From assembly GCF_051903065.1 (NCBI RefSeq), contig NZ_CP178438.1: 64,000 nt of DNA; one strand, 5' to 3'. Position 1 is the stretch's first letter; each line of letters opens with the position of its first letter. The notes beneath the pieces are model-generated. The model was not told the DNA's origin. It saw only the letters and a list, made by a program, of their open reading frames with translations, and searched no databases. Made by a program: the position numbers and the translations under genes. This document shows positions 8,492 to 64,000 of this stretch, one piece after another. This stretch comes from Escherichia coli (GTDB taxonomy: Bacteria; Pseudomonadota; Gammaproteobacteria; Enterobacterales; Enterobacteriaceae).

Positions 8492-10132
8492 ATGGCAATC
8501 CACAATCGTGCAGGCCAACCTGCACAACAGAGTGATTTGATTAACGTCGCCCAACTGACGGCGCAATATTATGTACTGAAACCAGAAGCAGGGAATGCGG
8601 AGCACGCGGTGAAATTCGGTACTTCCGGTCACCGTGGCAGTGCAGCGCGCCACAGCTTTAACGAGCCGCACATTCTGGCGATCGCTCAGGCAATTGCTGA
8701 AGAACGTGCGAAAAACGGCATCACTGGCCCTTGCTATGTGGGTAAAGATACTCACGCCCTGTCCGAACCTGCATTTATTTCCGTACTGGAAGTGCTGGCA
8801 GCGAACGGCGTAGATGTTATTGTGCAGGAAAACAATGGCTTCACCCCGACGCCTGCCGTTTCCAATGCCATCCTGGTTCACAATAAAAAAGGTGGCCCGC
8901 TGGCAGACGGTATCGTGATTACACCGTCCCATAACCCGCCGGAAGATGGTGGTATCAAGTACAATCCGCCAAATGGTGGCCCGGCAGATACCAACGTCAC
9001 TAAAGTGGTGGAAGACAGAGCCAACGCACTGATGGCCGATGGCCTGAAAGGCGTGAAGCGTATCTCCCTCGACGAAGCGATGGCATCCGGTCATGTGAAA
9101 GAGCAGGATCTGGTGCAGCCGTTTGTGGAAGGGCTGGCCGATATCGTTGATATGGCGGCGATTCAGAAAGCGGGCCTGACGCTTGGCGTTGATCCGCTGG
9201 GCGGTTCCGGTATCGAATACTGGAAGCGTATTGGCGAGTATTACAACCTCAACCTGACTATCGTTAACGATCAGGTCGATCAAACCTTCCGCTTTATGCA
9301 CCTTGATAAAGACGGCGCGATCCGTATGGACTGCTCCTCCGAGTGTGCGATGGCGGGCCTGCTGGCACTGCGTGATAAGTTCGATCTGGCGTTTGCTAAC
9401 GACCCGGATTATGACCGTCACGGTATCGTCACTCCGGCAGGTTTGATGAATCCGAACCACTACCTGGCGGTGGCAATCAACTACCTGTTCCAGCATCGTC
9501 CGCAGTGGGGCAAAGATGTTGCCGTTGGTAAAACGCTGGTTTCTTCTGCGATGATCGACCGTGTGGTCAATGACTTGGGTCGTAAGCTGGTAGAAGTCCC
9601 GGTAGGTTTCAAATGGTTTGTTGATGGTCTGTTCGACGGCAGCTTCGGCTTTGGCGGCGAAGAGAGCGCAGGGGCTTCCTTCCTGCGTTTCGACGGCACG
9701 CCGTGGTCCACCGACAAAGACGGCATCATCATGTGTCTGCTGGCGGCGGAAATCACCGCTGTCACCGGTAAGAACCCGCAGGAACACTACAACGAACTGG
9801 CAAAACGCTTTGGTGCGCCGAGCTACAACCGTTTGCAGGCAGCTGCGACTTCCGCACAAAAAGCGGCGCTGTCTAAGCTGTCTCCGGAAATGGTGAGCGC
9901 AAGCACCCTGGCAGGTGACCCGATCACCGCGCGCCTGACTGCTGCTCCGGGCAACGGTGCTTCTATTGGCGGTCTGAAAGTGATGACTGACAACGGCTGG
10001 TTCGCCGCGCGTCCGTCAGGCACGGAAGACGCATATAAGATCTACTGCGAAAGCTTCCTCGGTGAAGAACATCGCAAGCAGATTGAGAAAGAAGCGGTTG
10101 AGATTGTTAGCGAAGTTCTGAAAAACGCGTAA
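8492..10132 (+). CDS. pgm: phosphoglucomutase
   Basis: Product starting [20 protein letters not shown] with phosphohexomutase active-site motif TPSHNP; start taken at the internal Met of track ORF 8441-10132. Confidence 0.9.
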
Positions 10133-10148
10133 ACACATTAAATAAGAA

Positions 10149-10178
10149 AAAGGGCGGTCGGAAGATCGCCCTTTTTTA
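10149..10178 (+). terminator. putative pgm terminator
   Basis: Hairpin gggcggtc-ggaa-gatcgccc followed by a T-run. Confidence 0.55.
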
Positions 10179-10198
10179 CGTATGACAAACACAGAATT

Positions 10199-10297
10199 GC
10201 CTGATGCGCTACGCTTATCAGGCCTACGAGGATGGTGCAATATATTGAATTTACGCGATTTTGTAGGCCGGATAAGGCGTTCATGCCGGATCCAGCA
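10199..10297. repeat. BIME: two REP palindromes with a conserved linker (possible RIP/IHF-type element)
   Basis: gcctgatgcgctacgcttatcaggcctac ... tgcaatatattgaattt ... gtaggccggataaggcgttcatgccggatcc; nearly the same architecture as 2769-2866. Confidence 0.7.
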
Positions 10298-10306
10298 TTT
10301 AACCGC

Positions 10307-10984
10307 CTAAAGCATAAACCGATAACCAATACCGGTTTCAGTAATGAAATGGCGGGGGCGAGCGGGATCCTGTTCCAGTTTTTGTCGCAGATGCCCCATA
10401 TAAATCCGCAAATAATGACTGTGTTCGACCGCGTTTGGTCCCCATACCTGGTTAAGGAGCTGGCGCTGGGTGAGCACTTTTCCAGCATTGTTGAGCAGCA
10501 CCGCCAGCAGGCGGAATTCAATCGGCGTGAGATGCACCTCTTCCTCACCCCGGTGAATCACGCGGGCGGCTAAATCGACGGTAACATCGGAAAATTTCAC
10601 CAGCGGATCGGGCGCGGCGGTGGCGGAGTGGCGGCGTAATGCGACGCGCAGACGGGCCTGCAATTCGCCAATGCCAAACGGCTTACTCAGATAATCATCT
10701 GCTCCGGCATCCAGCGCGGCGATTTTGTCGCTCTCTTCGCTACGTGCGGAAAGCACAATCACCGGCACCGCGCTCCACTGGCGCAGGTCGCGGATAAACT
10801 CAATCCCATCACCATCGGGCAGGCCGAGATCGAGAATAATCAAATCTGGCTTACGGGTAGCCGCTTCCAGCAAGCCGCGTTGCAGCGTTTCGGCCTCATA
10901 GACGCGCATCCCGTCGCCCTCCAGCGCCGTGCGCAGAAAGCGACGAATAGCCTGTTCATCTTCAACAATCAGAACGTTTGTCAC
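10307..10984 (-). CDS. kdpE: response regulator KdpE (OmpR family)
   Basis: 225-aa ORF, receiver domain ([17 protein letters not shown]...DLGLPDGDG) plus winged-helix domain; adjacent to kdpD. Confidence 0.9.
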   Translation of the reverse strand: MTNVLIVEDEQAIRRFLRTALEGDGMRVYEAETLQRGLLEAATRKPDLIILDLGLPDGDGIEFIRDLRQWSAVPVIVLSARSEESDKIAALDAGADDYLSKPFGIGELQARLRVALRRHSATAAPDPLVKFSDVTVDLAARVIHRGEEEVHLTPIEFRLLAVLLNNAGKVLTQRQLLNQVWGPNAVEHSHYLRIYMGHLRQKLEQDPARPRHFITETGIGYRFML

Positions 10985-13665
10985 ATATCCTCATGAAATT
11001 CTTCAAGTTCAGGGGCAGTTTGCTGGGGAAGTGTAACACGAAAACAGGCACCACCTTCCGGTCGGTTGAACGCGGTAATAGTGCCCCCGTGTACATCCAC
11101 TATCGCCCGACAAATTGCCAGTCCAAGCCCTACCCCCGGTACTGCCGACTCTTTATTCCCGCGAGCAAACTTATCAAATATCGTCTGCTCCTGGCCTGGC
11201 GGAAGACCGGGGCCGTTATCCCAGACATCCAGTTGTAGATTTTCGCCCTCAACGTGGGCATCGATACCAATTTCGGCCTGCGCACCCGCATATTTCACCG
11301 CGTTCTCCAGCAGATTAATCAGCACCCGTTCAAAGAGTGGCCCGTCAACGTGGATTAAGGTCAGCGGTTCTGGCAGAGAAAGATTGATGGGCGACGATAA
11401 ACCCGGTTCCAGCATTTGCAGCGCGCTGCCGACTACTTCTTCCAGCGTTAACCACTCTTTCTTCAAATTAAAGCCGCCGGACTGAATTCGCGCCATATCC
11501 AGTAGATTATTCACCAGTCGGGTAGTGTTCAGCACATGCTGACGAATCTCGCTGGCCTGGCGGGCGTGGGGTGATCCTTCGCTTGCCAGATCGAGCGTTA
11601 AGATTTCTGCCTGACCAAACAGCACCGTAAGCGGAGTGCGTAAATCATGCGAAAGCGCCGCCAGCAGGGCGTTGCGGATCTGTTCACGTTCGCTTGCCAT
11701 CCGCGCCTGTTCTTCGCTGGCGGTCAGCGTCAGCCGCTCAAGGGCATTGGCGACTAACAGCGTAAACGTCTCCAGCAGGCGCTGCTGTTCCGGGATCATC
11801 AACTGACGCAGATTCCCCGGTTCCACCACCACCAACCCGTAGGTTTTCTCACCGCTTTTTAACGGCAAAATCTGGTACGGCACGCCGGGTAACGTGTCGG
11901 TGCCCGCACCCGCAGGCAGGCCTTTATCAAAACTCCACTGCGCGATGGCATCGTCCCACGGCGTCATTCCTTGCGGATGTGTTAACGGCTGCAATTTACC
12001 GTTGTCATCGGGCAACAACACCTGACTGCGGGCATGAAACGTGGAGGCAATAAATTGTTCGCTGGTGGCGGCGATGTCCTGCGGACTGCGGCCCACCGCC
12101 AGAGCTTTCGACATTTCATATAAGTGCCGTGTGCGTTGCTCGCGGTAACGGGCTACCCGTGCCTGATAACGCACACCCGCAGTAAGGTTCCCGATCACCA
12201 GCCCGACGGTTAACATCACCGCGAAGGTCAGCAGATATTGCACATCAGAGACGGCGAGCGTGCCGCGTGGGGCGATAAAAAAGAGATCGAAACTCACCAC
12301 ATTAATGACGGTAGCAACCACCGAAGGCCAGCGTCCATAAAATAGCGCCACCACCACCACGCCAAGTAGATACAGCATCACCAGGTTGGCGGCATCAAAC
12401 GCCATCAGCCACTGCATGGCAATTAAGGTGATAACGGCGCATAACGCGGCGGCAACCACGCATCCCTGAATCTGTACCCGCCACTTGTCTTTAAAAGAGC
12501 GGCTATCCGGCGCGTTGTTAATCGTGCGGGCGGGTGGTTCATCAAGCGCGACCAGCACCTGATCGAGATCGGGGGCGATGCGCGCCAGTCGGTCAGCAAA
12601 CGTTTCCCGACGCCACCAGCGGCGCGAGGCTGGGCGACCGAGAATAATCTTGCCGAGATTATGTTCACGGGCATAACGCACTACCGCTTTCTCTTCCGCT
12701 GGATCAGAAAGTGTTGCCGTCTCCGCGCCCAGCTCCTGCGCCAGACGTAAGGCGCTGAGAATTGCCCGACGTTTTTTCTCCGGTAAGCGATGCAGGGCAG
12801 GGGTTTCAACATACACCGCGTGCCAGACGCTCCCCAGCCGTGACGCCAGCCGCGCCGCCGCGCGGACCAGTTTTTCGCTGCCGGTGTTATGGCCGATGCA
12901 TAAAAGGATCGCGTCGCGCGTGTGCCAGACTTTCTCTTCGCCAGGATGCCCCCGCCAGGCGCGCATTTGCTCATCAACGCGATCGGCAGTACGGCGCAGT
13001 GCCAGTTCGCGCAGGGCGATCAGATTGCCTTTGCGGAAAAAATGTTCAATGGCGCGCTCCGCCTGCCCGGCAATATAGACTTTGCCTTCTTTTAGCCGCT
13101 GGCGCAGATCGTCCGGGGGCAAGTCCACCAGCACCACGTCGTCGGCGGCATCGAAAAAAGGATCGGGCACGGTTTCCCGTACCTGAATTCCGGTGACGCC
13201 GCTGACCACATCATTCAGACTTTCCAGATGCTGAACGTTGACGGTTGTGAAAACATCAATGCCAGCTTCCAGCAGTTCTTCGATATCCTGCCAGCGTTTG
13301 GGATGACGGGAACCTGGCGCATTACTGTGCGCCAGTTCGTCCATTAAGATCAGCGCCGGACGGCGGGCGAGGGCGGCATCGAGATCAAACTCGCTGATAT
13401 GCCGCCCACGGTACGCCTGGCGTTTCAGCGGCAGAACAGCCAGCCCTTCCAGCATTGCGGCGGTATCTTTCCGCCCGTGGGTTTCTACCACGCCAACCAC
13501 AATATCCAGCCCTTGCGCCCGCAGTCGCTGGGCTTCTGCCAGCATCGCCCAGGTCTTCCCGACGCCTGCGCAGGCACCGAAAAAAACTTTCAGCTTCCCC
13601 CGATGCGGCGCGGCAGTTTGTTCCAGTAGACGATCGGGGTCGGGACGTAAGGGTTCGTTATTCAT
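10981..13665 (-). CDS. kdpD: sensor histidine kinase KdpD
   Basis: Product from [16 protein letters not shown]... with Walker-A-like GACAGVGKT in the N-terminal domain and a C-terminal HisKA/HATPase domain (H-box LSHDLRTPL); the track ORF starts slightly upstream at 13698. Confidence 0.9.
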
Positions 13666-52217: not shown

Positions 52218-52352
52218 TGTCTTAAACGGTTAACCACGGTCGAAATCTGACTGCAGGCTTGACTGCATGACCACAACCACTGTGGATTGCCGCGACCGGT
52301 GATGCTGCCAACTTACTGATTTAGTGTATGATGGTGTTTTTGAGGTGCTCCA

Positions 52353-52628
52353 GTGGCTTCTGTTTCTATCAGCTGTCCCTCCTGTTCAGCTACTGACGGG
52401 GTGGTGCGTAACGGCAAAAGCACCGCCGGACATCAGCGCTATCTCTGCTCTCACTGCCGTAAAACATGGCAACTGCAGTTCACTTACACCGCTTCTCAAC
52501 CCGGTACGCACCAGAAAATCATTGATATGGCCATGAATGGCGTTGGATGCCGGGCAACAGCCCGCATTATGGGCGTTGGCCTCAACACGATTTTACGTCA
52601 CTTAAAAAACTCAGGCCGCAGTCGGTAA
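52353..52628 (+). CDS. insA: IS1 InsA
   Basis: 91-aa [46 protein letters not shown]… (zinc-finger DNA-binding InsA). Confidence 0.95.
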
Positions 52629-53050
52629 CCTCGCGCATACAGCCGGGCAGTGACGTCATCGTCTGCGCGGAAATGGACGAACAGTGGGGCTATGTCGGGG
52701 CTAAATCGCGCCAGCGCTGGCTGTTTTACGCGTATGACAGGCTCCGGAAGACGGTTGTTGCGCACGTATTCGGTGAACGCACTATGGCGACGCTGGGGCG
52801 TCTTATGAGCCTGCTGTCACCCTTTGACGTGGTGATATGGATGACGGATGGCTGGCCGCTGTATGAATCCCGCCTGAAGGGAAAGCTGCACGTAATCAGC
52901 AAGCGATATACGCAGCGAATTGAGCGGCATAACCTGAATCTGAGGCAGCACCTGGCACGGCTGGGACGGAAGTCGCTGTCGTTCTCAAAATCGGTGGAGC
53001 TGCATGACAAAGTCATCGGGCATTATCTGAACATAAAACACTATCAATAA
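52547..53050 (+). CDS. insB: IS1 InsB' (expressed as InsAB' transposase by -1 frameshift)
   Basis: 167-aa ORF in the -1 frame relative to insA, overlapping its 3' end, as in IS1. Confidence 0.9.
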
Positions 53051-53560
53051 GTTGGAGTCATTACCGCCGCGACCGACCGCAAGCCACGAATAAGAACGAC
53101 GGCGAATTTCGAATCGTTACCTGATGCACTGGCTTCCCAGCGTTTGACCGTAGCGTTAAGTAAATCAACAAAAGCGATGTTCACCGCTTTTCGTCAAGTC
53201 GTGCCATTTGTCAGCCAGGATCGGGTCTTTACCCCGGATATTGCAGCATCGCAAAAATTCTTAGATGGATATGCTATAAATCAAAAATAAAATCTTTGTT
53301 GATTGTTTATCATAATATCCACAGATATGATAAATGATATCAATTTAATAATTTTCACTTAATGTGATTCCGGATAATTCGAAAGGCGCTGTGCTTTTCG
53401 GATTATTATTATCTGATTAAGATATTTGTCACGCCAGCCTTACTGGTTTATAAATGTCAATCATGATTCTTATAAATTATTTATTGCTGCTTTGGTTACC
53501 ATTACTTCGTAATAAGTAATGTATTTTTGATGGTTTAAACTATTTTTAAGGGACGGCATT

Positions 53561-54184
53561 ATGCGAGGGAAAATACCTAAAACGGAACTGCTGGTGACTT
53601 TTGAGGTCGTCGCACGTCATGAAAGTTATACCAGAGCGGCAGAGGAGTTAGCGTTAACCCAAAGTGCAGTATTCAGACAAGTAAGTGCGCTGGAGGAATT
53701 TTTACGTACTCCGTTATTTTCACACTCTAAAAAACGCATTTTTCTTAATGATACAGGGAAGTATTACCTGGGGATAGTAAAAGAAACATTAAATAAGCTG
53801 GAACGCGATACCAATACCATTATGACCTGGCAGCCTACGGTTCAGGTTATTGAACTTGCCGTTAATCCTACTTTTAGTACCCACTGGTTGATCCCAAATT
53901 TACATGAATTCACAAAGTTACATCCCGATATTATTGTTAATATTCATTCTTTAGCTAATAACGGCGATTTTCTTAATCGGGAGTACGATGCTGTCATTAT
54001 GCGCGAAAATTTTTGCGCGCCCTGGGCGGAAGTAGAATATCTCTTTGATGAGGAGATTTTGCCGGTATGCAGCGGCAGTTTGCTTGCAATGTCCGATCAA
54101 AAGCTGTCAGTGGCAGAACTGCTTACTGAGTTACCGCTTCTGCATCAAAGCACGGCTTTGTTGAATAAATCAGATTTCGGGTAA
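53561..54184 (+). pseudogene. LysR-family transcriptional regulator, 3'-truncated by the IS903-like element (native codons 1-197; the last codons are IS-derived)
   Basis: N-terminal LysR-type HTH (…LVTFEVVARHESYTRAAEELALTQSAVFRQVSALEEFL…); the reading frame runs into the IS903 inverted repeat at 54153 and terminates 32 nt inside it; AT-rich. Confidence 0.8.
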
Positions 54185-55210
54185 GTCTCCCCCGTAGCGG
54201 GTTGTGTTTTCAGGCAATACGCACGCTTTCAGGCATACCTGCTTTCGTCATTTTGTTCAGCGCTCGTACCAGGGCCATAGCCTCTGCAACCTGACCATCG
54301 TAGTCACGCAGTGTCAGTGAACCCCCGAACAGCTGTTTTACCCGGTACATCGCCGTTTCCGCTATCGAGCGACGGTTGTAATCTGTTGTCCATTTCCACC
54401 GCGCATTACTCCCGGTCATTCGCTGATTAGCCACTGCACGGTTACGGTCTGCATATTCACCGGGCCAGTAACCCGCACCTTTTCGGGGAGGGATAAGCGC
54501 GCTGATTTTCTTACGCCGCAGTTCATCGTGACATAGCCGGGTATCGTAAGCGCCATCGGCGGCGGCTGACCTGATTTTCCGGTGGGTTTGCCGGATTAAC
54601 CCGGGGAAGGCCTCTGAGTCCGTAACGTTGTTCAGCGACAGGTCAGCGCAGATGATTTCATGTGTTTTACTGTCAACGGCGAGATGCAGCTTACGCCAGA
54701 TACGGCGGCGTTCCTGGCCATGCTTTTTGACTTTCCACTCGCCTTCACCGAAGACCTTCAGCCCGGTGGAATCAATTACCAGGTGTGCGATTTCACCCCG
54801 GGTGGGCGTTTTGAAACTGACATTAACCGACTTTGCCCGCCTGCTGACACAGCTGTAATCCGGGCAGCGTAGCGGAACGTTCATCAGAGAAAAAATGGAA
54901 TCAATAAAGCCCTGCGCAGCGCGCAGGGTCAGCCTGAATACGCGTTTAATGACCAGCACAGTCGTGATGGCAAGGTCAGAATAGCGCTGAGGTCTGCCTC
55001 GTGAAGAAGGTGTTGCTGACTCATACCAGGCCTGAATAGCTTCATCATCCAGCCAGAAAGTTATGGAGCCACGGTTGATGAGGGCTTTATTGTAGGTGGG
55101 CCAGTTGGTGATTTTGAACTTTTGCTTTGCCACGGAACGGTCTGCGTTGTCGGGAAGATACGTGATCTGATCCTTCAACTCAGCAAAAGTTCGATTTATT
55201 CAACAAAGCC
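54153..55210 (-). mobile_element. IS903-like element (IS5 family, IS903 group), about 1058 bp, with 18-bp terminal inverted repeats and no flanking target duplication
   Basis: Ends ggctttgttgaataaatc (54153-54170) and gatttattcaacaaagcc (55193-55210); encodes the transposase below; flanking 9-mers tcaaagcac and atttatcag differ. Confidence 0.85.
54210..55178 (-). CDS. IS903-type transposase
   Basis: ORF …KQKFKITNWPTYNKALINRGSITFWLDDEAIQAWYESATPSSRGRPQRYSDLAITTVLVIKRVFRLTLRAAQGF… with DDE-type motifs (…VIDSTGLKV…, …AADGAYDTR…, …YNRRSIAETAMYRVKQLFG…); the track start is at 55178, and the true start may be an internal GTG. Confidence 0.85.
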   Translation of the reverse strand: MKDQITYLPDNADRSVAKQKFKITNWPTYNKALINRGSITFWLDDEAIQAWYESATPSSRGRPQRYSDLAITTVLVIKRVFRLTLRAAQGFIDSIFSLMNVPLRCPDYSCVSRRAKSVNVSFKTPTRGEIAHLVIDSTGLKVFGEGEWKVKKHGQERRRIWRKLHLAVDSKTHEIICADLSLNNVTDSEAFPGLIRQTHRKIRSAAADGAYDTRLCHDELRRKKISALIPPRKGAGYWPGEYADRNRAVANQRMTGSNARWKWTTDYNRRSIAETAMYRVKQLFGGSLTLRDYDGQVAEAMALVRALNKMTKAGMPESVRIA

Positions 55211-55581
55211 ATTTATCAGGCGAAAGTGGCCTCTGTTCACTCAGAAACAATCACTCCCGGTAAGTCATACCTGTTTCATCGATACATTTAAGTGATTATT
55301 ACTAATGAAACAATAACATAACGGGCTTACGGTCGGTGCTCATAAAGGCAACAATCAATTAACTTTGATAAAAATATGTTATGTAAAATAGCAACAAATT
55401 GGCTACTCTAATCAATTGGTATTATAAAAAGTTGATTGGGCGGTTCTGTTAAATAAAACACTGGTTTTTTATCTATACCTTTTCATTGTAATAATTGTGT
55501 TGCATAAATATTTCACAATAAATTAACAATAAAATCACCAATGATCTATGGTTTATACATAATTAACATATTTGGTTGGTT

Positions 55582-55595
55582 TTGATATAAATCAA
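55582..55595. promoter_or_regulatory. perfect FNR/CRP-family box TTGAT-ATAA-ATCAA in the cydAB upstream region
   Basis: Sequence ttgatataaatcaa matches the FNR consensus TTGAT-N4-ATCAA exactly, about 340 bp upstream of the cydA start; cydAB is known to be FNR/ArcA-regulated. Confidence 0.55.
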
Positions 55596-55932
55596 TTTTT
55601 AATTCTTGAAAAAAATCTGCAAAACACGATAAATTGTCGTAGATCAAATTGGTGAGATCGTGACAATTTCGCTATAAATTGATCACTGTCGAAAAATGCA
55701 AATTTGCTCAATAAAAACCTGTTTATTGTAAGGATTTTGCGGCGTAATATAATTACGGGATCAATTTGGTTTATTCATTAACATATTTGTAACTTTTTTA
55801 TCATTGTCTTTTCCTCTTTTGATGAAATGGCAACGATAGAGGCGAGCAAATAATTTTGTATTGGGGCATGCGTGTGACCCTTTCTAACGGGGTTCACTCT
55901 CGGAGTCTTCATGCGATGAGCAAGGAGTCATG

Positions 55933-57501
55933 ATGTTAGATATAGTCGAACTGTCGCGCTTACAGTTTGCCTTGACCGCGATGTACCACTTCCTTTTTGT
56001 GCCACTGACGCTCGGTATGGCGTTCCTGCTGGCCATTATGGAAACGGTCTACGTCCTTTCCGGCAAACAGATTTATAAAGATATGACCAAGTTCTGGGGC
56101 AAGTTGTTTGGTATTAACTTTGCTCTGGGTGTGGCTACCGGTCTGACCATGGAGTTCCAGTTCGGGACTAACTGGTCTTACTATTCCCACTATGTAGGGG
56201 ATATCTTCGGTGCGCCGCTGGCAATCGAAGGTCTGATGGCCTTCTTCCTCGAATCCACCTTTGTAGGTCTGTTCTTCTTCGGTTGGGATCGTCTGGGTAA
56301 AGTTCAGCATATGTGTGTCACCTGGCTGGTGGCGCTCGGTTCAAACCTGTCCGCACTGTGGATTCTGGTTGCGAACGGCTGGATGCAAAACCCAATCGCG
56401 TCCGATTTCAACTTTGAAACTATGCGTATGGAGATGGTGAGCTTCTCCGAGCTGGTGCTTAACCCGGTTGCTCAGGTGAAATTCGTTCACACTGTAGCGT
56501 CTGGTTATGTGACTGGCGCGATGTTCATCCTCGGTATCAGCGCATGGTATATGCTGAAAGGTCGTGACTTCGCCTTCGCTAAACGCTCCTTTGCTATCGC
56601 TGCCAGCTTCGGTATGGCTGCCGTTCTGTCTGTTATTGTTCTGGGTGATGAATCTGGTTACGAAATGGGCGACGTGCAGAAAACCAAACTGGCTGCTATT
56701 GAAGCTGAGTGGGAAACGCAACCTGCGCCTGCTGCCTTTACTCTGTTCGGCATTCCTGATCAGGAAGAGGAGACGAACAAATTTGCGATCCAGATCCCTT
56801 ACGCGCTGGGCATCATTGCAACGCGTTCCGTGGATACTCCAGTTATCGGCCTGAAAGAACTGATGGTGCAGCATGAAGAACGCATTCGTAACGGGATGAA
56901 GGCGTACTCTCTGCTCGAGCAACTGCGTTCTGGTTCTACCGACCAGGCGGTTCGTGACCAGTTCAATAGCATGAAGAAAGACCTCGGTTACGGTCTGCTG
57001 CTGAAACGCTATACGCCAAACGTGGCTGATGCGACTGAAGCTCAGATTCAACAGGCAACCAAAGACTCCATCCCGCGTGTAGCGCCGCTGTACTTTGCGT
57101 TCCGTATCATGGTGGCGTGTGGCTTCCTGCTGCTGGCAATCATCGCGCTCTCTTTCTGGAGTGTCATCCGCAACCGCATTGGCGAGAAAAAATGGCTCCT
57201 GCGCGCCGCGCTGTACGGTATTCCGCTGCCGTGGATTGCTGTAGAAGCGGGCTGGTTCGTGGCTGAATATGGCCGCCAACCGTGGGCTATCGGTGAAGTG
57301 CTGCCGACAGCTGTGGCGAACTCGTCACTGACCGCAGGCGATCTCATCTTCTCAATGGTGCTGATTTGCGGCCTGTATACCCTGTTCCTGGTGGCAGAAT
57401 TGTTCTTAATGTTCAAGTTTGCACGCCTCGGCCCAAGCAGCCTGAAAACCGGTCGCTATCACTTTGAGCAGTCTTCCACGACTACTCAGCCGGCACGCTA
57501 A
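55933..57501 (+). CDS. cydA: cytochrome bd-I ubiquinol oxidase subunit I
   Basis: Product [31 protein letters not shown]… (the track ORF has one additional upstream Met at 55930). Confidence 0.95.
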
Positions 57502-57516
57502 GACAGGAGTCGTCAA

Positions 57517-58656
57517 ATGATCGATTATGAAGTATTGCGTTTTATCTGGTGGCTGCTGGTTGGCGTTCTGCTGATTGGTTTTGCAGTCACTGACGGTTTC
57601 GACATGGGGGTGGGCATGCTCACCCGTTTTCTCGGTCGTAACGACACCGAGCGTCGAATTATGATTAACTCCATTGCTCCACACTGGGACGGTAACCAGG
57701 TTTGGCTGATCACCGCGGGCGGCGCACTCTTTGCTGCCTGGCCGATGGTCTATGCCGCTGCGTTCTCCGGCTTCTATGTGGCGATGATCCTCGTGCTGGC
57801 GTCTTTGTTCTTCCGTCCGGTCGGTTTTGACTACCGCTCCAAGATTGAAGAAACCCGCTGGCGTAACATGTGGGACTGGGGCATCTTCATTGGTAGCTTC
57901 GTTCCGCCGCTGGTAATTGGTGTAGCGTTCGGTAACCTGTTGCAGGGCGTACCGTTCAACGTTGATGAATATCTGCGTCTGTACTACACCGGTAACTTCT
58001 TCCAGTTGCTTAATCCGTTCGGCCTGCTGGCAGGCGTGGTGAGCGTAGGGATGATCATTACTCAGGGCGCAACCTATCTGCAAATGCGTACCGTGGGCGA
58101 ACTGCACCTGCGTACCCGTGCAACGGCTCAGGTGGCGGCACTGGTGACACTGGTCTGTTTCGCACTGGCTGGCGTATGGGTGATGTACGGTATCGATGGT
58201 TATGTCGTGAAATCGACAATGGACCATTACGCAGCCTCTAACCCGCTGAATAAAGAAGTGGTTCGTGAAGCTGGCGCATGGCTGGTTAACTTCAACAACA
58301 CGCCAATTCTGTGGGCTATTCCGGCACTGGGTGTGGTTCTGCCGCTGCTGACCATCCTGACTGCACGTATGGATAAAGCCGCGTGGGCGTTTGTGTTCTC
58401 CTCCCTGACGCTGGCCTGCATCATCCTGACAGCCGGTATCGCAATGTTCCCGTTTGTGATGCCGTCCAGCACCATGATGAACGCAAGTCTGACAATGTGG
58501 GATGCAACTTCCAGCCAGCTGACGCTTAACGTCATGACCTGGGTTGCGGTGGTTCTGGTACCGATCATTCTGCTCTACACCGCCTGGTGTTACTGGAAAA
58601 TGTTCGGTCGTATCACCAAAGAAGATATTGAACGTAACACCCACTCTCTGTACTAA
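57517..58656 (+). CDS. cydB: cytochrome bd-I ubiquinol oxidase subunit II
   Basis: 379-aa membrane ORF MIDYEVLRFIWWLLVGVLLIGFAVTDGFDMG…. Confidence 0.95.
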   Translation: MIDYEVLRFIWWLLVGVLLIGFAVTDGFDMGVGMLTRFLGRNDTERRIMINSIAPHWDGNQVWLITAGGALFAAWPMVYAAAFSGFYVAMILVLASLFFRPVGFDYRSKIEETRWRNMWDWGIFIGSFVPPLVIGVAFGNLLQGVPFNVDEYLRLYYTGNFFQLLNPFGLLAGVVSVGMIITQGATYLQMRTVGELHLRTRATAQVAALVTLVCFALAGVWVMYGIDGYVVKSTMDHYAASNPLNKEVVREAGAWLVNFNNTPILWAIPALGVVLPLLTILTARMDKAAWAFVFSSLTLACIILTAGIAMFPFVMPSSTMMNASLTMWDATSSQLTLNVMTWVAVVLVPIILLYTAWCYWKMFGRITKEDIERNTHSLY

Positions 58657-58670
58657 GTAAGGAGCTAAAA

Positions 58671-58784
58671 ATGTGGTATTTCGCATGGATTCTGGGAACG
58701 CTTCTTGCCTGTTCGTTTGGGGTAATCACCGCGCTGGCGCTTGAGCACGTCGAATCAGGCAAAGCCGGTCAAGAAGACATCTGA
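58671..58784 (+). CDS. cydX: cytochrome bd-I small subunit CydX
   Basis: 37-codon ORF MWYFAWILGTLLACSFGVITALALEHVESGKAGQEDI preceded by RBS ggag; below the six-frame track size cutoff. Confidence 0.8.
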   Translation: MWYFAWILGTLLACSFGVITALALEHVESGKAGQEDI

Positions 58785-59077
58785 TGAGTAAGATTATCGC
58801 AACCTTGTATGCGGTAATGGACAAGCGCCCCCTGCGGGCGCTTTCCTTCGTGATGGCGCTTCTGTTAGCAGGATGTATGTTTTGGGACCCATCACGTTTC
58901 GCCGCGAAGACCAGTGAACTGGAAATCTGGCATGGTTTATTGCTGATGTGGGCCGTCTGTGCTGGTGTGATTCACGGCGTGGGCTTTCGTCCGCAGAAGG
59001 TTCTTTGGCAAGGGATTTTTTGCCCATTGCTTGCCGATATTGTTCTCATTGTCGGGCTGATTTTCTTTTTCTTTTAA
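58784..59077 (+). CDS. ybgE: small membrane protein YbgE (cyd operon)
   Basis: 97-aa hydrophobic ORF whose ATG overlaps the cydX stop. Confidence 0.8.
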   Translation: MSKIIATLYAVMDKRPLRALSFVMALLLAGCMFWDPSRFAAKTSELEIWHGLLLMWAVCAGVIHGVGFRPQKVLWQGIFCPLLADIVLIVGLIFFFF

Positions 59078-59100
59078 ATCAGAATTCTCTTTAAAAAATT

Positions 59101-59129
59101 ATGGGCCGCGCCAGGCCCATAAATTTTTA
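59101..59129 (+). terminator. possible terminator after ybgE
   Basis: Hairpin atgggcc-gcgcca-ggcccat followed by aaattttta; weak T-tract. Confidence 0.35.
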
Positions 59130-59226
59130 CGCTCCCTTAACTTGCCCTCATTCCCAAACCTCAATCGCGCGCGTATAGTAGCAGCGTTTAAAAGCTCTAA
59201 CTTTTGTTGCATTACCGGGATGTAAA

Positions 59227-60320
<1,094 letters not shown>

Positions 60321-60323
60321 GCC

Positions 60324-60752
60324 ATGGCCAGAGCGCGTGGACGAGGTCGTCGCGATCTCAAGTCCGAAATCAACATTGTACCGTTGCTGGACGTACTGCT
60401 GGTGCTGTTGCTGATCTTTATGGCGACAGCGCCCATCATCACCCAGAGCGTGGAGGTCGATCTGCCAGACGCTACTGAATCACAGGCGGTGAGCAGTAAC
60501 GATAATCCGCCAGTGATTGTTGAAGTGTCTGGTATTGGTCAGTACACCGTAGTGGTTGAGAAAGATCGCCTTGAGCGTTTACCACCAGAGCAGGTGGTGG
60601 CGGAAGTGTCCAGCCGTTTCAAGGCCAACCCGAAAACGGTCTTTCTGATCGGTGGCGCAAAAGATGTGCCTTACGATGAAATAATTAAAGCACTGAACTT
60701 GTTACATAGTGCGGGTGTGAAATCGGTTGGTTTAATGACGCAGCCTATCTAA
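60324..60752 (+). CDS. tolR: Tol-Pal system protein TolR
   Basis: 142-aa ORF MARARGRGRRDLKSEINIVPLLDVLLVLLLIFM… (ExbD/TolR family). Confidence 0.95.
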   Translation: MARARGRGRRDLKSEINIVPLLDVLLVLLLIFMATAPIITQSVEVDLPDATESQAVSSNDNPPVIVEVSGIGQYTVVVEKDRLERLPPEQVVAEVSSRFKANPKTVFLIGGAKDVPYDEIIKALNLLHSAGVKSVGLMTQPI

Positions 60753-60816
60753 ACATCTGCGTTTCCCTTGCTTGAAAGAGAGCGGGTAACAGGCGAACAG
60801 TTTTTGGAAACCGAGA

Positions 60817-62097
60817 GTGTCAAAGGCAACCGAACAAAACGACAAGCTCAAGCGGGCGATAATTATTTCAGCAGTGCTGCATGTCATCTTATTTGCGGCG
60901 CTGATCTGGAGTTCGTTCGATGAGAATATAGAAGCTTCAGCCGGAGGCGGCGGTGGTTCGTCCATCGACGCTGTCATGGTTGATTCAGGTGCGGTAGTTG
61001 AGCAGTACAAACGCATGCAAAGCCAGGAATCAAGCGCGAAGCGTTCTGATGAGCAGCGCAAGATGAAGGAACAGCAGGCTGCTGAAGAACTGCGTGAGAA
61101 ACAAGCGGCTGAACAGGAACGCCTGAAGCAACTTGAGAAAGAGCGGTTAGCTGCTCAGGAACAGAAAAAGCAGGCTGAAGAAGCCGCAAAACAGGCCGAG
61201 TTAAAGCAGAAGCAAGCGGAAGAGGCGGCAGCGAAAGCGGCGGCAGATGCTAAAGCGAAGGCCGAAGCGGATGCTAAAGCTGCGGAAGAAGCAGCGAAGA
61301 AAGCGGCTGCAGACGCGAAGAAAAAAGCAGAAGCAGAAGCCGCCAAAGCCGCAGCCGAAGCGCAGAAAAAAGCCGAGGCAGCAGCTGCGGCGCTGAAGAA
61401 GAAAGCGGAAGCGGCAGAAGCAGCTGCAGCTGAAGCAAGAAAGAAAGCGGCAACTGAAGCTGCTGAAAAAGCCAAGGCAGAAGCTGAGAAGAAAGCGGCT
61501 GCTGAAAAGGCTGCAGCTGATAAGAAAGCGGCAGCAGAGAAAGCTGCAGCCGACAAAAAAGCAGCAGAAAAAGCGGCTGCAGAAAAGGCAGCAGCTGATA
61601 AGAAAGCAGCGGCAGAAAAAGCCGCCGCAGACAAAAAAGCGGCAGCTGCAAAAGCAGCAGCTGAAAAAGCAGCAGCTGAAAAAGCCGCTGCAGCAAAAGC
61701 TGCCGCAGAGGCAGATGATATTTTCGGTGAGCTAAGCTCTGGTAAGAATGCACCGAAAACGGGGGGAGGGGCGAAAGGGAACAATGCTTCGCCTGCCGGG
61801 AGTGGTAATACTAAAAACAATGGCGCATCAGGGGCCGATATCAATAACTATGCCGGGCAGATTAAATCTGCTATCGAAAGTAAGTTCTATGACGCATCGT
61901 CCTATGCAGGCAAAACCTGTACGCTGCGCATAAAACTGGCACCCGATGGTATGTTACTGGATATCAAACCTGAAGGTGGCGATCCCGCACTTTGTCAAGC
62001 TGCGTTGGCAGCAGCTAAACTTGCGAAGATCCCGAAACCACCAAGCCAGGCAGTATATGAAGTGTTCAAAAACGCGCCATTGGACTTCAAACCGTAA
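60817..62097 (+). CDS. tolA: Tol-Pal system protein TolA
   Basis: 426-aa ORF with GTG start: N-terminal TM anchor, long Ala/Lys/Glu-rich helical domain II encoded by tandem repeats, C-terminal domain III. Confidence 0.9.
   Translation: MSKATEQNDKLKRAIIISAVLHVILFAALIWSSFDENIEASAGGGGGSSIDAVMVDSGAVVEQYKRMQSQESSAKRSDEQRKMKEQQAAEELREKQAAEQERLKQLEKERLAAQEQKKQAEEAAKQAELKQKQAEEAAAKAAADAKAKAEADAKAAEEAAKKAAADAKKKAEAEAAKAAAEAQKKAEAAAAALKKKAEAAEAAAAEARKKAATEAAEKAKAEAEKKAAAEKAAADKKAAAEKAAADKKAAEKAAAEKAAADKKAAAEKAAADKKAAAAKAAAEKAAAEKAAAAKAAAEADDIFGELSSGKNAPKTGGGAKGNNASPAGSGNTKNNGASGADINNYAGQIKSAIESKFYDASSYAGKTCTLRIKLAPDGMLLDIKPEGGDPALCQAALAAAKLAKIPKPPSQAVYEVFKNAPLDFKP
61180..61720 (+). repeat. tandem degenerate repeats encoding the TolA domain II (A/K/E/D-rich helix)
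   Basis: Repeated units of the form aaa-gcg/gca-gca-gct-ga(a/t)-aag (…KAAAEKAAADKKAAAEKAAADKK…) seen directly in the sequence. Confidence 0.85.
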
Positions 62098-62226
62098 TCG
62101 CGATGCTGACTGTTCCGACGGTCAACATCAGGCACCGGTTGCCACGGGGTTCTGGTAGTTTTGTGTATTTTAGTTTGTTAACATTCTGCTAAATTATCGT
62201 GGGCCATCGGTCCAGATAAGGGAGAT

Positions 62227-63522
62227 ATGATGAAGCAGGCATTACGAGTAGCATTTGGTTTTCTCATATTGTGGGCATCAGTTCTTCATGCTGAAGTCCG
62301 CATTGTGATCGACAGCGGTGTAGATTCCGGTCGTCCTATTGGAGTTGTTCCTTTCCAGTGGGCGGGCCCTGGTGCGGCACCTGAAGATATTGGCGGCATC
62401 GTTGCTGCCGACTTGCGTAACAGCGGTAAATTTAATCCGTTAGATCGCGCTCGTCTGCCACAGCAGCCGGGTAGTGCGCAGGAAGTACAACCAGCTGCAT
62501 GGTCCGCGCTGGGTATTGACGCTGTAGTTGTCGGTCAGGTCACTCCGAATCCGGATGGTTCTTACAATGTTGCTTATCAACTTGTTGACACTGGCGGCGC
62601 ACCGGGTACTGTACTTGCTCAGAACTCGTACAAAGTGAACAAGCAGTGGCTGCGTTATGCTGGTCATACCGCCAGTGATGAAGTGTTTGAAAAACTGACC
62701 GGTATTAAAGGTGCGTTCCGTACCCGTATTGCCTACGTTGTTCAGACCAACGGCGGTCAGTTCCCGTATGAACTGCGCGTATCTGACTATGACGGTTACA
62801 ACCAGTTTGTCGTTCACCGTTCACCACAGCCGCTGATGTCCCCGGCGTGGTCACCAGACGGTTCTAAACTGGCTTATGTGACCTTCGAAAGCGGTCGTTC
62901 CGCGCTGGTTATCCAAACGCTGGCAAACGGCGCTGTACGTCAGGTGGCTTCATTCCCGCGTCACAACGGTGCGCCTGCATTCTCGCCAGACGGCAGCAAA
63001 CTGGCATTCGCGTTGTCGAAAACCGGTAGCCTGAACCTGTACGTAATGGATTTGGCTTCTGGTCAGATCCGCCAGGTGACTGATGGTCGCAGTAACAATA
63101 CCGAACCGACCTGGTTCCCGGACAGCCAGAACCTGGCATTTACTTCTGACCAGGCCGGTCGTCCACAGGTTTATAAAGTGAATATCAACGGCGGTGCGCC
63201 ACAACGTATTACCTGGGAAGGTTCGCAGAACCAGGATGCGGATGTCAGCAGCGACGGTAAATTTATGGTAATGGTCAGCTCCAACGGTGGGCAGCAGCAC
63301 ATTGCCAAACAAGATCTGGCAACGGGAGGCGTACAAGTTCTGTCGTCCACGTTCCTGGATGAAACGCCAAGTCTGGCACCTAACGGCACTATGGTAATCT
63401 ACAGCTCTTCTCAGGGGATGGGATCCGTGCTGAATTTGGTTTCTACAGATGGGCGTTTCAAAGCGCGTCTTCCGGCAACTGATGGACAGGTCAAATTCCC
63501 TGCCTGGTCGCCGTATCTGTGA
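62227..63522 (+). CDS. tolB: Tol-Pal system periplasmic protein TolB
   Basis: 431-aa ORF with signal peptide (…ILWASVLHA) and beta-propeller repeats; the real start may be the second Met (62230). Confidence 0.95.
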
Positions 63523-63532
63523 TAATAATTAA

Positions 63533-64000
<468 letters not shown>

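Follow-up and report, generated by a model that had tools for sequence, protein, structure and literature searches.

In Escherichia coli K-12 (NC_000913.3), pgm ends at position 715198 and kdpE at position 721056, and the 5,857 bp between them (pgm-kdpE interval, b0688-b0694) carry ybfP, ybfG (a pseudogene), ybfI (a pseudogene), potE, speF and speFL. In the stretch of E. coli DNA analysed here (64 kb, hereafter the window), the stop codons of the same two genes are separated by only 174 bp, which raises the question of whether the speF-potE genes, an acid-inducible operon for ornithine decarboxylase and a putrescine antiporter, were lost from this site or never occupied it. A sequence-only reading of the window had given the K-12 gene order correctly, had placed the two stop codons about 175 bp apart, and had left loss and original absence as alternatives, a formulation that matches what the evidence allows. 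We conclude, with a probability of about 0.75, that the convergent pgm/kdpE junction of the window is of an old structural type, an allele without the speFL-speF-potE cassette.

The gap is filled by a bidirectional terminator hairpin, one BIME composed of two inverted REPs, and nine further bases (Table 1). Both the hairpin and the two REP units had been recognized by the sequence-only reading, and RNA folding together with inspection of the sequence agreed with it. The terminator RNA of the plus strand folded at -21.9 kcal/mol (z = -5.95) and ends in UUUUUU; that of the minus strand folded at -15.5 kcal/mol (z = -3.99), and its tail is rich in U. A consensus terminator scan missed this hairpin, apparently because the A and T runs pair with each other, extending the stem and consuming the tail; folding was therefore used instead. 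By its structure the hairpin is a predicted bidirectional intrinsic (Rho-independent) terminator, and it is from this structure that we infer termination. The Pgm protein of the window is 99.8% identical to that of K-12, and the closest complete genome is annotated likewise. On the opposite side, kdpD lies upstream of kdpE in the kdpFABCDE transcription unit, which ends at the pgm/kdpE junction.

Table 1. Features at the pgm/kdpE junction, in window coordinates.
Feature	Position	Strand	Description
pgm (phosphoglucomutase) CDS	8492-10132	+	stop TAA 10130-10132; TIGR01132 equivalog, 1073 bits
pgm-kdpE gap	10133-10306		174 bp, from pgm stop (10132) to kdpE stop (10307)
Terminator hairpin (predicted)	10146-10177	both	stem GGGCGGTC 10152-10159, loop GGAA, stem GATCGCCC 10164-10171; GC-rich stem bounded by an A-run (left) and a T-run (right, 10172-10177)
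REP1 of BIME	10198-10227		tgcctgatgcgctacgcttatcaggcctac; read from sequence
BIME spacer	10228-10262		35 nt between REP1 and REP2
IHF-consensus-like site (putative)	about 10238-10251	-	ATTCAATATATTG, one mismatch to WATCAANNNNTTR; found by eye
REP2 of BIME	10263-10297		inverted relative to REP1; REP consensus with 3 mismatches
Filler	10298-10306		tttaaccgc, 9 nt between REP2 and the kdpE stop
kdpE	10307-10984	-	stop TAG 10307-10309; NF007820 equivalog, 487 bits
kdpD	10981-13665	-	NF007793 equivalog, 1837 bits; also by annotation of the closest genome

The BIME is extragenic, lying between two convergent stop codons, and we take it to be BIME-1-like, with two inverted REPs around a spacer. REP1 and REP2 each formed a hairpin of their own in the minus-strand RNA fold. 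Four matches to the REP consensus were counted in the window, with zero expected (100 shuffles), and the element is multi-copy in the species: in the median E. coli genome, a junction query finds 20 matching places. The spacer resembles the REP/BIME-derived Rfam family ES036 below threshold (32.6 bits against a gathering score of 37.6), and the Rfam search as a whole returned only sub-threshold matches, to the REP/BIME-derived sRNA families ES036 and naRNA4. A second BIME, 88% identical to the junction BIME over 120 bp, is present at 2756-2874, downstream of glnS according to the annotation of E. coli ECNB21-M121. Over roughly its first 52.3 kb the window has 99.98% identity to ECNB21-M121, from which it departs over 52298-64000; this part contains a copy of IS903B (54154-55210), beyond which the sequence is unlike the methylaspartate mutase/ammonia-lyase island that follows sucD in ECNB21-M121. 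This departure is probably an IS-associated rearrangement or a difference in island content.

Searches of the 64-kb window with the K-12 genes and the K-12 interval (tblastn and blastn) detected no homolog of speF, potE or ybfP, and no copy of ybfG, ybfI or speFL, and matched only pgm, seqA, kdpE and REPs, in line with the earlier claim that speF-potE is absent from this site. Among 5,426 complete E. coli genomes, speF-potE DNA at ≥90% identity was found in about 5,050, a figure close to the 5,045 genomes that carry one of two cassette-bearing junction alleles (A and B, described below). This agreement indicates that genomes with the cassette-less alleles C and E lack speF-potE anywhere, with at most a handful of exceptions. 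For the strain of the window, of which 64 kb were read, genome-wide absence would follow from these population counts. The cassette is thus accessory, being carried by 93% of E. coli and missing from about 7% of complete genomes. Plasmid matches to potE were considered as a possible mobile, intact cassette and rejected, since they represent an IS26-flanked fragment only: the 78-kb resistance plasmid NZ_CP182310.1 holds a 360-bp potE pseudogene fragment (L097, 7001-7360; 92% identical) that lies between IS26 copies and adjoins a class 1 integron (dfrA14). On this plasmid, IS26 has picked up chromosomal DNA of the pgm-kdpE locus.

Junction and structure queries against the 5,426 complete genomes distinguished at least six structural alleles between pgm and kdpE. 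The commonest, allele B (3,197 genomes, 59%), reads pgm-terminator-56 bp-potE-speF-speFL-kdpE, without BIME and without ybfP; it is represented by ATCC 11775, O157:H7, O55:H7 and SCU-122, and occurs also in E. albertii. Allele A, the K-12 type, accounts for 1,848 genomes (34%), and the K-12 arrangement is not the norm, a refinement of the earlier reading. Allele E (244 genomes, for example AF206) reads pgm-terminator-BIME-ybfP-second BIME-kdpE and is without speF-potE. The window type, allele C, was found in 93 genomes by the strict count (range 93-112), that is, in about 2% of complete E. coli genomes, or about 7% when its sister allele E is added. Two genomes carry allele B' (pgm-terminator-BIME-short spacer-second terminator-potE), and at least one, of ST2747, has an 83-bp intergenic variant. 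A raw junction query returned 356 genomes, comprising alleles C and E; this number was rejected as a count of type C, as the two aligned pieces of allele E, with ybfP between them, had been joined into one place, and a recount with a short junction-specific query gave the 93 and 244 reported here. Type C genomes came from humans, pigs, cattle, deer, a baboon, an otter, a frog, meat and water on several continents. The cassette-bearing E. coli include strains that presumably belong to several phylogroups. An IS1-mediated deletion at the locus was seen in strain CUVM53.

The alleles share a common left side and differ in what follows it. The hairpin adjoining pgm is common to alleles A, B, B', C and E, and REP1 is conserved in A, C, E and B' as well as in L006, a genome that bears the label E. 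coli but has only 94.8% identity to the window. Allele B has the flanking genes of the window and the same pgm terminator, with an identical stem-loop in SCU-122; in contrast to the window, potE lies 56 bp after pgm, the BIME is absent, the cassette is present and the kdpE stop codon is TGA. Allele E resembles the window in the absence of speF-potE, in the same left BIME and in the sequence of REP, 9-nt filler and TAG at kdpE, but it has in addition the lipoprotein gene ybfP and a second BIME, and its filler is attcagacc. The two REPs around ybfP in allele E have the same orientation, and recombination between them could yield a structure resembling type C, such as that of ST2747. The 83-bp gap of E. 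coli ST2747 (NZ_CP007393.1; L093, 1197-1279) has neither the terminator hairpin nor REP1 and keeps the BIME spacer together with the REP and filler of the second BIME of allele E. Pgm and kdpE thereby have no shared hairpin in this genome, whose junction seems to have arisen from an allele E ancestor by a REP-REP deletion of its own.

REP2 of the window differs from the canonical type C and K-12 copy by three substitutions (10284, 10289 and 10294) that cluster in its 3' arm, one of which weakens the REP stem. The possibility that these mark the joint of a REP-REP recombination was rejected: four type C genomes (L088-L091) have the canonical REP2, identical to that of K-12, with the same filler, so the three changes characterize a sub-lineage of type C and not the allele itself. 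Strain JNE151685 also has the changes at 10289 and 10294. At ≥99%, the window junction is matched by only 11 genomes.

Alignment with K-12 gave different results for the two sides of the junction. On the left, allele A has the same flanking genes in the same orientation, the same pgm terminator and the same BIME as the window (165 bp, 95.8% identity). This homology ends at 10297, exactly at the 3' end of REP2, and resumes only at the last base of the kdpE stop codon. After REP2, K-12 has 5.7 kb that the window does not, including ybfP, ybfG, ybfI, a partial REP, a second terminator, potE, speF and speFL. On the kdpE side, the stop codon of K-12, like that of allele B, is TGA and adjoins an AT-rich region that contains a separate terminator for kdpE, whereas the right flank of the window carries a 9-nt filler absent from K-12, TAG in place of TGA, and a kdpE 3' end that is 3.5-5.1% diverged. 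In further refinement of the earlier reading, the window allele is no simple derivative of that of K-12, its right junction being shared with other speF-less alleles.

The K-12 interval itself appears to be composite. The ybfI pseudogene (region NC_000913.3 716721-716959; L001 6722-6960) consists of a 150-bp fragment of the kdpE 3' end that is 88% identical to kdpE of the window and 12% diverged from the kdpE of K-12 itself. After this fragment come a partial REP, a spacer and the pgm terminator in a second copy, all of which align with the rare allele B' (strain N96). Since a kdpE 3' fragment is joined here to sequence of the B' type, the K-12 arrangement looks like a fusion of a speF-less allele bearing ybfP and ybfG with a speF-bearing allele of the B' type.

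The age of the window allele is indicated by the haplotype around it. Between the window and O55:H7 (allele B), 15 differences fell in the last 400 bp of kdpE against 7 in the next 2,600 bp (p = 5e-9), and between the window and K-12, 17 differences fell in the same 400 bp against 5 in the next 1,000 bp (p = 3e-6). The last 400 bp of kdpE (10307-10706) are thus about 14-fold more diverged than the adjacent 2.6 kb, in comparisons between otherwise near-identical haplotypes; no comparable jump in divergence was found on the pgm side. An in-place deletion would have left the kdpE 3' end identical, and the diverged block therefore points to exchange by homologous recombination. The junction itself is uniform: the five further type C genomes that were read all have this filler, and the six type C genomes together share filler and TAG despite different pgm and kdpE backgrounds, which argues for a single type C allele identical by descent. 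The TAG stop codon and the REP-filler architecture are also common to allele E, ST2747 and L006, the last of which is collinear with the window and aligned in one piece across the junction, whereas the cassette-bearing alleles examined have TGA. Taken together, these comparisons characterize the allele as old, and not as the product of a recent deletion in place within K-12-like DNA. It has probably moved from lineage to lineage by homologous recombination, the crossovers presumably falling within kdpE and close to, or at, the pgm 3' end.

The kdpE 3' half is hypervariable across E. coli, with 2.5-9% nucleotide divergence against 0-3% in the 5' part and about 0-0.5% in kdpD; a recombination hotspot, linked old alleles or gene conversion from ybfI could be responsible. 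Hypervariability of the 3' end extends to type C genomes among themselves (2.5-4.2%), so that the haplotype block is not cleanly split by allele type. The same protein, WP_000186102.1, is annotated in four genomes, and the kdpE differences among them are synonymous.

Conservation of the junction was also assessed at 80 listed loci from other species, oriented on kdpE, among which Salmonella, E. fergusonii and the E. coli type genome do not figure. Among the loci listed, kdpE and pgm are directly adjacent, with gaps of 36-110 bp, in Pantoea, Serratia, Buttiauxella, Franconibacter, several Citrobacter and others, and we take this adjacency with one shared terminator to be the deep ancestral state in Enterobacterales. 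The empty junctions of Citrobacter, Pantoea, Serratia and others resemble the window in having convergent kdpE and pgm, one bidirectional terminator and no cassette; unlike the window, they span only 36-110 bp, have no E. coli-type BIME, and have a T-run that abuts the kdpE stop codon. At other listed loci, speFL-speF-potE occupies exactly the kdpE-pgm site, as in E. albertii, Kluyvera, Lelliottia, Cedecea, Atlantibacter and others, and Salmonella presumably has speF-potE there too. The distribution is patchy within genera: of the Citrobacter species listed, two have the cassette and five do not, and Enterobacter, Phytobacter and Escherichia are similarly mixed. Klebsiella indica TOUT106 (L016, 10672-10849) has kdpE and pgm adjacent and no speF-potE, as in the window, but retains about 70 bp of the potE 3' end, compared with at most 7 nt in the window. 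This remnant is an unambiguous deletion scar and shows that secondary loss happens at this site. Differing cargo of about 2-8 kb occupies the junction in further Enterobacterales (L039, L040, L053, L069, L074 and L079), which suggests a general insertion hotspot.

Two readings would make the short junction recent or artificial. In the first, illegitimate recombination at a REP would recently have removed, in this lineage alone, either the K-12-type interval (5.9 kb) or the type B interval (4.3 kb). This would agree with the 95.8% identity of the left 165 bp to K-12 and with the end of homology at REP2, and recent IS1-mediated deletions do occur at the locus, as in CUVM53. It is nevertheless very improbable, since the filler and stop codon of the right junction differ from both K-12 and type B, the kdpE 3' end differs by 3-5% from those of K-12 and O55:H7 beside neighbouring stretches of 600-2,600 bp that are 0-0.5% diverged, the same junction recurs on varied backgrounds and in the Escherichia lineage of L006, which is about 5% diverged, and type B has no BIME that could have served as the left endpoint. 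Collapse or misassembly, which the sequence-only reading had named as the possible undoing of its claim, is more improbable still, to the point of being negligible: REP/BIME repeats are indeed multi-copy, but at least 93 independently assembled complete genomes, from independent projects, have the identical junction in contiguous sequence, and there are no long flanking repeats able to collapse 5.9 kb of unique sequence.

The remaining choice, between ancient loss and a site that never held the cassette, is closer. A single ancient REP-bounded deletion in a precursor that had both BIME and cassette stands, in our judgement, at an even chance. The precursor would have been B'-like (pgm-terminator-BIME-S4-terminator-potE and onward), and allele B', which combines BIME and cassette in two genomes, is a possible representative. 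The deleted DNA would have extended from the REP2 end or the potE terminus to the stop codon of kdpE; the heptamer ttaaccg would be the scar of this event, and TAG the stop codon that it created. The heptamer ttaaccg (10299-10305) corresponds to the last 7 nt of potE, whose 3' end reads ttaaccgtg, and it lies where a potE scar would lie (rough post hoc chance estimate about 0.002). It may thus be a deletion scar of potE, although the 7-nt match was itself found post hoc and the corresponding fillers of allele E (attcagacc) and L006 (atttattcc) do not match potE. When a synthetic sequence joining a BIME straight to potE served as the query, no genome with that arrangement was found, but this search uncovered allele B' in two genomes. 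Under the alternative, the ancestral order of pgm stop, terminator and kdpE stop would have gained only the BIME and persisted beside cassette-bearing alleles. We consider this unlikely, if worth keeping in view. It would accommodate the direct adjacency in several genera and the patchiness of the cassette within genera, among the loci listed, as well as the lack of any cassette remnant longer than 7 nt in the window interval and the restriction of the TAG and REP-filler junction to C, E, ST2747 and L006, with no cassette-bearing allele having it. On the other side, a vertical model places the cassette in the E. coli ancestor, given its presence in E. albertii and in 93% of E. coli, strains presumably of several phylogroups among them; the ttaaccg match falls exactly at the expected scar position; and a change from TGA to TAG requires two substitutions. 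On balance we lean towards deletion over a never-occupied site, though the data would fit either.

A broader, tentative and on balance doubtful extension is that presence and absence of the cassette form a long-lived polymorphism, older than the split between E. coli and the nearest cryptic Escherichia, maintained by selection and shuffled by recombination, with K-12 as a fusion of speF-less and speF-bearing alleles in which ybfI is the scar.

In the proposed functional picture, the pgm and kdpFABCDE transcripts would converge on the shared hairpin and both terminate there; kdp transcripts would cross REP2 and then REP1 first, and the REP hairpins would act as 3' stabilizers. By analogy with other REPs, these hairpins may protect the 3' end of kdp mRNA. 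The strain is predicted to have no ornithine-inducible decarboxylase and no ornithine/putrescine antiport (SpeF/PotE), and its putrescine supply would depend on SpeC and other transporters. Putrescine synthesis should still proceed through SpeC and SpeA/SpeB, as the established pathways predict. Searches of the literature on speF/potE absence, kdpE and phylogroup, and ybfP/ybfG found no description of the window allele or of the allele series. Among related reports, ybfP is enriched in phylogroup A (bioRxiv 10.1101/096479), and the polyamine genes of an ST117 avian-pathogenic E. coli (APEC) strain are K-12-identical (PMC6307189). A review lists SpeF/PotE among the amino-acid decarboxylase acid-stress systems of E. 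coli, with a contribution "not unequivocally defined" (PMC7698193).

As a polymorphism in gene content the feature is ordinary, and its class is familiar: an accessory operon that varies between strains, located at a convergent junction rich in REPs. Strains of type C are predicted to be without the SpeF/PotE ornithine-dependent acid-stress system, and the direct consequence is modest. For E. coli, the K-12 gene order at this position is a minority arrangement, apparently composite, and is unfit as a reference state. For Enterobacterales more widely, the pgm/kdpE junction is a recurrent site of cargo and indels, which makes it a convenient natural system for the study of REP-bounded structural alleles and their recombinational exchange.
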